A DNA stretch of 64,000 bases from assembly GCF_003334355.1 (NCBI RefSeq), contig NZ_QOWP01000003.1; one strand, written 5' to 3'. Positions 8,622-8,930 of the stretch are shown piece by piece. Source of the DNA: Escherichia coli (lineage in GTDB: Bacteria; Pseudomonadota; Gammaproteobacteria; Enterobacterales; Enterobacteriaceae). Position 1 is the stretch's first letter. Each line of letters starts with the position of its first letter. The notes under the pieces were generated by a model that was not told where the DNA came from, made no database searches, and was given only the letters and a program-made list of their open reading frames with translations. Position numbers and translations under genes: made by a program.

Positions 8622-8697
8622 TGGAGCGGGAAACGAGACTCGAACTCGCGACCCCGACCTTGGCAAGGTCGTGCTCTACCAACTGAGCTATTCCCGC
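8622..8697 (-). tRNA. glyV: tRNA-Gly (anticodon GCC)
   Basis: Plus strand is exact reverse complement of GCGGGAATAGCTCAGTTGGTAGAGCACGACCTTGCCAAGGTCGGGGTCGCGAGTTCGAGTCTCGTTTCCCGCTCCA (76 nt). Which of glyV/X/Y this copy corresponds to is not certain. Confidence 0.95.
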
Positions 8698-8854
8698 TTA
8701 ATCTTCGTCTTTCGAACCGCTACTGCCTTGGCTGCCTTCACTCACCTTAGTCACATACTTTTGTAAGTTCCCAAGGATTCGTTCAGTTGCCGCCTTGTCG
8801 CAATTCGAAATACTGCGATTGGGTGGTCTGTGCTTTGCAGCACTTTTCAAATTT

Positions 8855-8930
8855 TGGAGCGGGAAACGAGACTCGAACTCGCGACCCCGACCTTGGCAAG
8901 GTCGTGCTCTACCAACTGAGCTATTCCCGC
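8855..8930 (-). tRNA. glyY: tRNA-Gly (anticodon GCC), second identical copy
   Basis: Identical 76-nt sequence to 8622-8697 on the same strand; symbol assignment is tentative. Confidence 0.95.

Follow-up and report, generated by a model that had tools for sequence, protein, structure and literature searches.

The tRNA-Gly(GCC) array in the 64-kb window (the whole stretch of Escherichia coli DNA analyzed here) reads, in the direction of transcription, as a putative promoter, a tRNA-Gly(GCC) gene, a 36-nt spacer, a 121-nt ERIC hairpin, a second tRNA-Gly(GCC) gene and a normal 3' flank (Table 1). ARAGORN and Rfam agree with an earlier sequence-only reading of this DNA that two tRNA-Gly(GCC) genes of 76 nt each lie on the minus strand, 157 nt apart, and this is the single inter-tRNA spacer of the array. 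The two genes have the same sequence, which is also that of glyV, glyX, glyY and glyW in strain K-12. Their neighbors are orn upstream and yjeV and queG downstream, as in K-12, where the array sits between orn and yjeV/queG. In K-12 MG1655 (NC_000913.3), glyV (4392360-4392435), glyX (4392472-4392547) and glyY (4392583-4392658) are separated by spacers of 36 nt (glyV-glyX) and 35 nt (glyX-glyY), which bears out the statement in the earlier reading of three copies with spacers of about 35 bp. Alignment to this region, the check which that reading had proposed, gave three copies in the reference and not two. The window thus shares with the K-12 glyV-glyX-glyY operon its flanking genes, the mature tRNA sequence, the first 36-nt spacer and the 3' flank, the sequence downstream of the last tRNA being identical to the K-12 glyY flank in the alignment, but it has two copies where K-12 has three. 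Against the K-12-type definition of glyVXY (three identical copies, 35-36-nt spacers), the window matches in synteny and tRNA sequence and departs in having two copies and one 157-nt spacer. A strict consensus scan at the gly array found no promoter. We place the putative glyV promoter by its conserved TATAAT and the adjoining discriminator block; a block upstream of the array (TCTCGTATAATGCGCCTCCCGT) is also kept across many enterobacterial genera.

Table 1. Features of the tRNA-Gly(GCC) array in the window, in the order of transcription
Feature	Position	Strand	Basis
Putative -10 hexamer TATAAT of the glyV promoter, followed by the GC-rich discriminator GCGCCTCCC	8988..8993	-	read from the sequence
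tRNA-Gly(GCC), promoter-proximal copy (glyV equivalent)	8855..8930	-	ARAGORN; Rfam tRNA model, 69.1 bits
Native 36-nt internal transcribed spacer	8819..8854	-	alignment to the K-12 glyV-glyX spacer
121-bp ERIC/IRU/RU-1 repeat directly 5' of the next tRNA	8698..8818	-	alignment, consensus match, fold
tRNA-Gly(GCC), terminal copy (probable recombinant of the glyX and glyY positions)	8622..8697	-	ARAGORN; Rfam tRNA model, 69.1 bits

To define the anatomy of the 157 nt, the window was aligned with K-12 (J53), BL21, S30, F070 and EC45 and read in the tRNA sense. The spacer proved to consist of the intact 36-nt K-12 spacer and a 121-bp insertion that abuts the next tRNA gene. Indeed, the 36 nt that follow the upstream tRNA match the K-12 glyV-glyX spacer at every position (AAATTTGAAAAGTGCTGCAAAGCACAGACCACCCAA), and the 121-bp block is missing from K-12, BL21 and CFT073, whose flanks otherwise match. 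The insertion is flanked only by a 2-nt AA repeat, and its boundaries are ambiguous by that AA. We compared it with the E. coli ERIC (RU-1) consensus of 127 positions, as printed in Delihas 2007 (PMC2759123). The alignment is ungapped over consensus positions 12-114 with 80/103 identical positions (77.7%), and its score of 91 lies about 35 standard deviations above that of shuffled spacers (15.9 +/- 2.2, maximum 25). The cores of both ERIC-PCR primers (ERIC1R and ERIC2) are matched, at 17/20 and 16/19 positions, and the central inverted repeat carries a compensated change from CCCC...GGGG in the consensus to CCTT...AAGG in the window element. With the copy that K-12 has between puuR and puuC, which is a full-length ERIC (127/127 positions, 83.5% identity to the consensus, TATA ends), the element shares 74.8% identity. 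Similar copies are found in E. coli genomes at up to five places per genome (E<=1e-5), and no second copy was found within the 64-kb window. The family has reportedly been named ERIC, IRU or RU-1 in work by Sharples and Lloyd in 1990, Hulton and colleagues in 1991, and Wilson and Sharp in 2006.

In sequence, palindrome, length and multi-copy occurrence, the insertion agrees with what is expected of an ERIC. Like other members, it falls in the range of about 120-127 bp, is non-coding, forms a long imperfect-palindrome stem-loop and is present in some strains and absent from others. At 121 bp relative to K-12 it is slightly shorter than the usual 127 bp or so because its ends have diverged, and still shorter forms occur as well, such as the 77-nt remnant at locus L094. 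Members of the family end in TATACCC...GGGTATA inverted repeats with TA termini or a TA target duplication (PMC2229807, Table 1), whereas the window copy ends in AATCGCAG...GAAGATTAA, with only an AATC/GATT pair and the AA repeat, so that about 10 terminal nt per side have diverged from the family inverted repeats and no TA duplication is visible. Such missing ends would fit an old, immobile ERIC copy. Also unlike a typical ERIC, the element lies inside a tRNA operon spacer instead of between protein-coding genes, and it travels and multiplies with a tandem repeat unit. ERIC is not among the Rfam families, and the only match of the element there is a sub-threshold, full-length one to the Vibrio family V_AS5 (8701-8822, minus strand; 16 bits against a gathering score of 96, E 2.9), which we do not count as evidence. 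As a side observation, V_AS5, a Vibrio antisense RNA, may overlap an ERIC-like Vibrio repeat. The RefSeq annotation of K-12 and other genomes holds no repeat feature for ERIC, and annotation pipelines have left the 121-bp element unlabeled in every record inspected.

The consensus match, the primer cores, the likeness to the puuR-puuC copy and the chance-level similarity to tRNA described below establish the insertion as an ERIC/IRU element, as opposed to the relic of a tRNA. The sequence-only reading had proposed that the middle tRNA-Gly had decayed to a pseudogene or been replaced, leaving the 157 bp as its remains, as two copies instead of the three of K-12, together with a spacer stretch (GCCAAGG...GTTCGA) that resembles parts of a tRNA, might suggest. 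Its observation that these 157 nt hold no tRNA stands, since ARAGORN made no call and the Rfam tRNA model gave no match in 8698-8854 at E<=10 with permissive filters. What it took for faint tRNA-like fragments is chance similarity, the local alignment of the spacer to tRNA-Gly scoring 15 against 14.8 +/- 2.0 for shuffled sequence. A decayed tRNA-Gly was rejected as a candidate, as by every test for a tRNA, namely the gene call, the model match and the comparison with shuffles, it came out as something else. Moreover, nothing in the 157 nt is left over for a relic once the unaltered 36-nt spacer and the ERIC are accounted for, and the same 157-nt spacer is found in arrays that have all three copies, so it does not stand in the place of a tRNA. 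We consider decay or replacement of a middle copy practically impossible.

The native spacer starts AU-rich (AAAUUUGAAAA), holds a small hairpin (8830-8843, minus strand) and ends in a conserved sequence of the CACCACCCAA type. In Mangrovibacter, Siccibacter, Pseudocitrobacter, Cedecea, Kluyvera and other genera, the arrays have only short spacers, which end in CACCACCCAA, and therefore the ACCCAA that precedes the ERIC belongs to the native spacer. The small hairpin is predicted in the window and in most of the genera compared, with differing stem sequences. The stems by genus are GUGCU/AGCAC, GGCC/GGCC, UGCC/GGCA, UGGCU/AGCCA, UGUC/GACA and GUAUC/GAUAC, with the pairing kept, between a conserved AAAUUUGA and the conserved CACCACCCAA; the hairpin was also seen at loci L037, L063, L069, L089, L098, L107 and L019. 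To judge from these sequences, the tRNA-Gly precursor seems to have a conserved structured signal here.

In the tRNA sense, the ERIC RNA is predicted to fold into a single long hairpin (8700-8820, -46.6 kcal/mol, z -3.6). The spacer RNA as a whole forms the small native hairpin and then the long ERIC stem-loop, with 2 nt between the base of that stem and the downstream tRNA. For the opposite strand, the predicted fold is poorer and of another shape (z -1.8). Eight orthologues, a small and partly related sample, retain the hairpin, with 98.7% of pair cells being standard pairs. Five stem pairs are changed on both sides and thus compensated, a level reached by 2/500 shuffles, with 0-1 in slid controls. 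The compensatory changes and G-U pairs of the stem work only in the tRNA-sense transcript. This covariation shows that pairing has been maintained, and it is not proof of function, as palindromes may also be maintained by templated repair. No terminator-like site was found inside the element, and from this together with the conserved upstream TATAAT and discriminator we infer that the ERIC is probably co-transcribed within the gly precursor.

We surveyed the array in 5426 complete E. coli genomes, of which 1607, or about 30%, have the 157-nt spacer (>=80% covered). The ERIC is missing at this position from K-12, BL21, CFT073 and an O157:H7 strain. The two long-spacer arrays that were inspected, those of S30 and F070, have three tRNA copies each. 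Arrays with fewer than three copies occur in 123/5426 genomes. Twenty-six of the 123 have the exact architecture of the window, on haplotypes 97.7-99.7% identical to it, and they include O111:H8 Shiga-toxin strains as well as bovine, porcine, avian and human isolates. At least 34 genomes, such as that of KO11FL, have two copies without an ERIC, and at least seven, among them TUM2820 and two laboratory derivatives of K-12, MC1061 and OV2, have only one copy. The records with a single tRNA-Gly at the locus include NZ_CP195014.1 (MC1061), NZ_CP195020.1 (OV2) and L130 (TUM2820). One-copy arrays in laboratory derivatives of K-12 indicate that unit loss happens on laboratory time scales. Over 24 kb, the genomes closest to the window are those of E. 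coli EC45 (99.8%) and TUM2820 (99.9%). The queG-side flank of the window is 100% identical to that of the ERIC-less K-12 over 1900 bp, which indicates that the ERIC polymorphism segregates on nearly identical backgrounds. McDonald et al. (2015) described the gly array as having three or four copies in all E. coli. The 123 genomes with one or two copies are exceptions, and the published statement is therefore not strictly true. We also observed that PMC4539685 groups glyW with the array, although glyW is in a separate operon.

The comparison with S30 and F070 accounts for the copy number in the window. Their arrays read tRNA-157-tRNA-35-tRNA, the first spacer being the same 157 nt as in the window, and their length of 420 nt exceeds the 309 nt of the window's array by 111 nt, that is, by one tRNA and a 35-nt spacer. 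The sequence-only reading had argued that simple loss of a repeat unit could not give such a spacer; it can, as the three-copy form minus exactly 111 bp is the window. Both remaining tRNA genes are intact. Such an arrangement is characteristic of unequal homologous recombination between identical 76-bp repeats, by which a three-copy, ERIC-bearing array would have lost one 111-bp unit (tRNA and 35-nt spacer). Since these repeats do not differ in sequence, they leave no trace of where the crossover took place. The loss of a whole unit, recurrent on several haplotypes, is what is also seen in other tandem tRNA arrays that vary in copy number by unequal recombination. The spread of the 26 genomes with this architecture over different haplotypes points to several independent deletions. 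Altogether, we hold it very probable that the window is a structural allele made up of an old ERIC in the spacer and a separate, clean loss of one 111-bp unit from the three-copy ERIC form.

The copy number in the window depends on its assembly, and from short reads the number of identical tandem units may come out too low. A true three-copy array that collapsed during assembly would thus be another source of the count of two, as identical tandem repeats, here 76 bp long and 111 bp apart, are a classic cause of under-assembly and the window has no exact match among the complete genomes (best 99.7-99.9%). For this, however, the whole of the distinct 35-nt second spacer would have to vanish from the assembly as well, and the exact architecture is found in 26 complete genomes, with about 97 others having fewer than three copies. 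We regard an assembly artifact as quite unlikely, and continue with a genuine loss of one unit.

The ERIC is not confined to E. coli. A scan of species representatives was performed for N{140,170} between tRNA ends, a range that also matches three-copy short-spacer arrays and Gly-Glu and Gly-Cys arrays. Among the matches listed, an Escherichia lineage about 94% identical to the window (L072) has the ERIC in the first spacer, whereas C. youngae CCUG 30791 (L071) and Enterobacter asburiae (L075) have it in the second. Also among them, Citrobacter sp. FP75 (L013) has two copies and an ERIC, the same architecture as the window, C. youngae ATCC 29220 (L114) has an ERIC in both spacers, and Escherichia sp. 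ESNIH1 (L094) has a full ERIC in the second spacer and a 77-nt remnant in the first. The array of ATCC 29220 (L114:11074-11613) holds three copies, and its two ERIC-bearing spacers indicate that the 232-bp unit of tRNA, spacer and ERIC was itself duplicated. In the ESNIH1 remnant (L094:14317-14393), the left arm is joined to the right end, with an internal deletion between GGCGGC repeats.

All these elements sit at the same nucleotide junction as that of the window. They share 85-97% identity with it, as against 72-79% with the family consensus and about 75% with a paralogue, and hence we consider them orthologues. This bears on whether the ERIC arrived by recent transposition in the lineage of this strain, with the same hotspot being hit independently in other genera. 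Such an event would be in keeping with the classification of ERICs as MITE-like mobile repeats (PMC3184786, PMC2229807), with window flanks identical to those of the ERIC-less K-12 and with the lack of the element there in CFT073, O157:H7, K-12 and BL21. Against it, the gly-array copies of five taxa share derived differences from the consensus as well as the junction, and the window holds no other copy of the element. Recent transposition is thus very improbable. The simplest history would be an old insertion, resident in the gly-array spacer since before Escherichia, Citrobacter and Enterobacter diverged. The unit of tRNA and spacer, with or without ERIC, would later have been moved and duplicated by unequal exchange, and the ERIC would have been lost in K-12-type arrays, possibly via gene conversion templated on a neighboring ERIC-free unit. 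The direction of change within E. coli, loss as opposed to gain, is inferred from these outgroups and not from a tree of the 5426 genomes.

Whether the ERIC matters for tRNA maturation can be considered from what is known in K-12, where the glyV-glyX-glyY transcript is a direct-entry substrate of RNase E (Clarke et al., 2014, PMC4191395; Clarke et al., 2023, PMC9841416). There, RNase E cuts 1 nt 3' of glyY, and both the unpaired glyX-glyY spacer and the adjacent upstream tRNA are required (PMC4191395, PMC9841416). In contrast, the terminal tRNA of the window is preceded by a 121-nt hairpin and not by an unpaired 35-nt spacer with an adjacent tRNA. By analogy, the window allele is predicted to alter both K-12 RNase E determinants for its terminal tRNA. 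RNase P would generate the 5' end of the downstream tRNA, thereby cutting the ERIC away from the precursor, and RNase E with exonucleases would generate the 3' end of the upstream tRNA. An ERIC before the terminal tRNA is the natural arrangement in several genera, so it must be tolerated. The element is 85-89% identical between Escherichia, Citrobacter, Enterobacter and ESNIH1, compared with 76-82% for the flanking DNA and 67-81% for the adjacent leader and trailer. This higher conservation, the pairing changes that work in the tRNA sense only, and the position of the hairpin where K-12 RNase E needs unpaired RNA raise the idea that the hairpin may be a conserved functional element of the tRNA-Gly precursor, acting as a substitute for or modulator of RNase E entry or as a stable spacer RNA like 3'ETS-leuZ. 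We advance this idea only tentatively and think it rather unlikely to be correct.

The surroundings of the array deserve a few remarks. Of the three perfect DnaA-box matches (TTWTNCACA) in the window, two are found downstream of the gly array, no more than about 260 bp away. The features of this region are at 8366-8374, 8528-8536 and 8596-8604 on the minus strand, and ATATCCACA is read there too. The datA locus has been placed between glyVXY and queG (PMC10380432), and these boxes and ATATCCACA would fit that locus. Relative to K-12, the distance from datA to the gly promoter has grown by 10 bp through the gain of the ERIC together with the loss of the unit. Immediately beyond the last tRNA there is a TATCCACA motif, which is kept in different genera. 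About 30 kb from the array, a tRNA-Phe(GAA) gene (38670-38745, plus strand) lies at the pheU position, and in CFT073 the tRNA-Phe at that position is followed by an integrase and an island.

The locus carries one tRNA-Gly(GCC) gene fewer than K-12. On this point the earlier reading was right to expect a change in gene dosage, but the effect is smaller than it implied, since K-12 has four identical tRNA-Gly(GCC) genes, the fourth, glyW, being in a separate operon elsewhere. If glyW, which lies outside the window, is present and intact in this strain, the change is from four genes to three. Our literature search found no paper linking ERIC to glyV; the ERIC survey of Wilson and Sharp (2006) was beyond its reach. 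We class the gly-array ERIC as an ordinary, so far undescribed member of a known family, found together with the usual copy-number variation of tandem genes.

Taken together, the locus is a natural, ordinary and recurrent structural allele of the glyV-glyX-glyY operon. It matters little for biology at large, and its description removes a false lead toward a decayed tRNA. The element has gone unannotated even though its 157-nt spacer occurs in 1607 complete genomes. With one to three copies of the gene in nature, the gly array makes the dosage of tRNA-Gly(GCC) more plastic than published statements suggest. Furthermore, the ERIC-plus and ERIC-minus alleles are natural, near-isogenic tRNA precursors, and as such provide material for testing the RNase E rules worked out in K-12.
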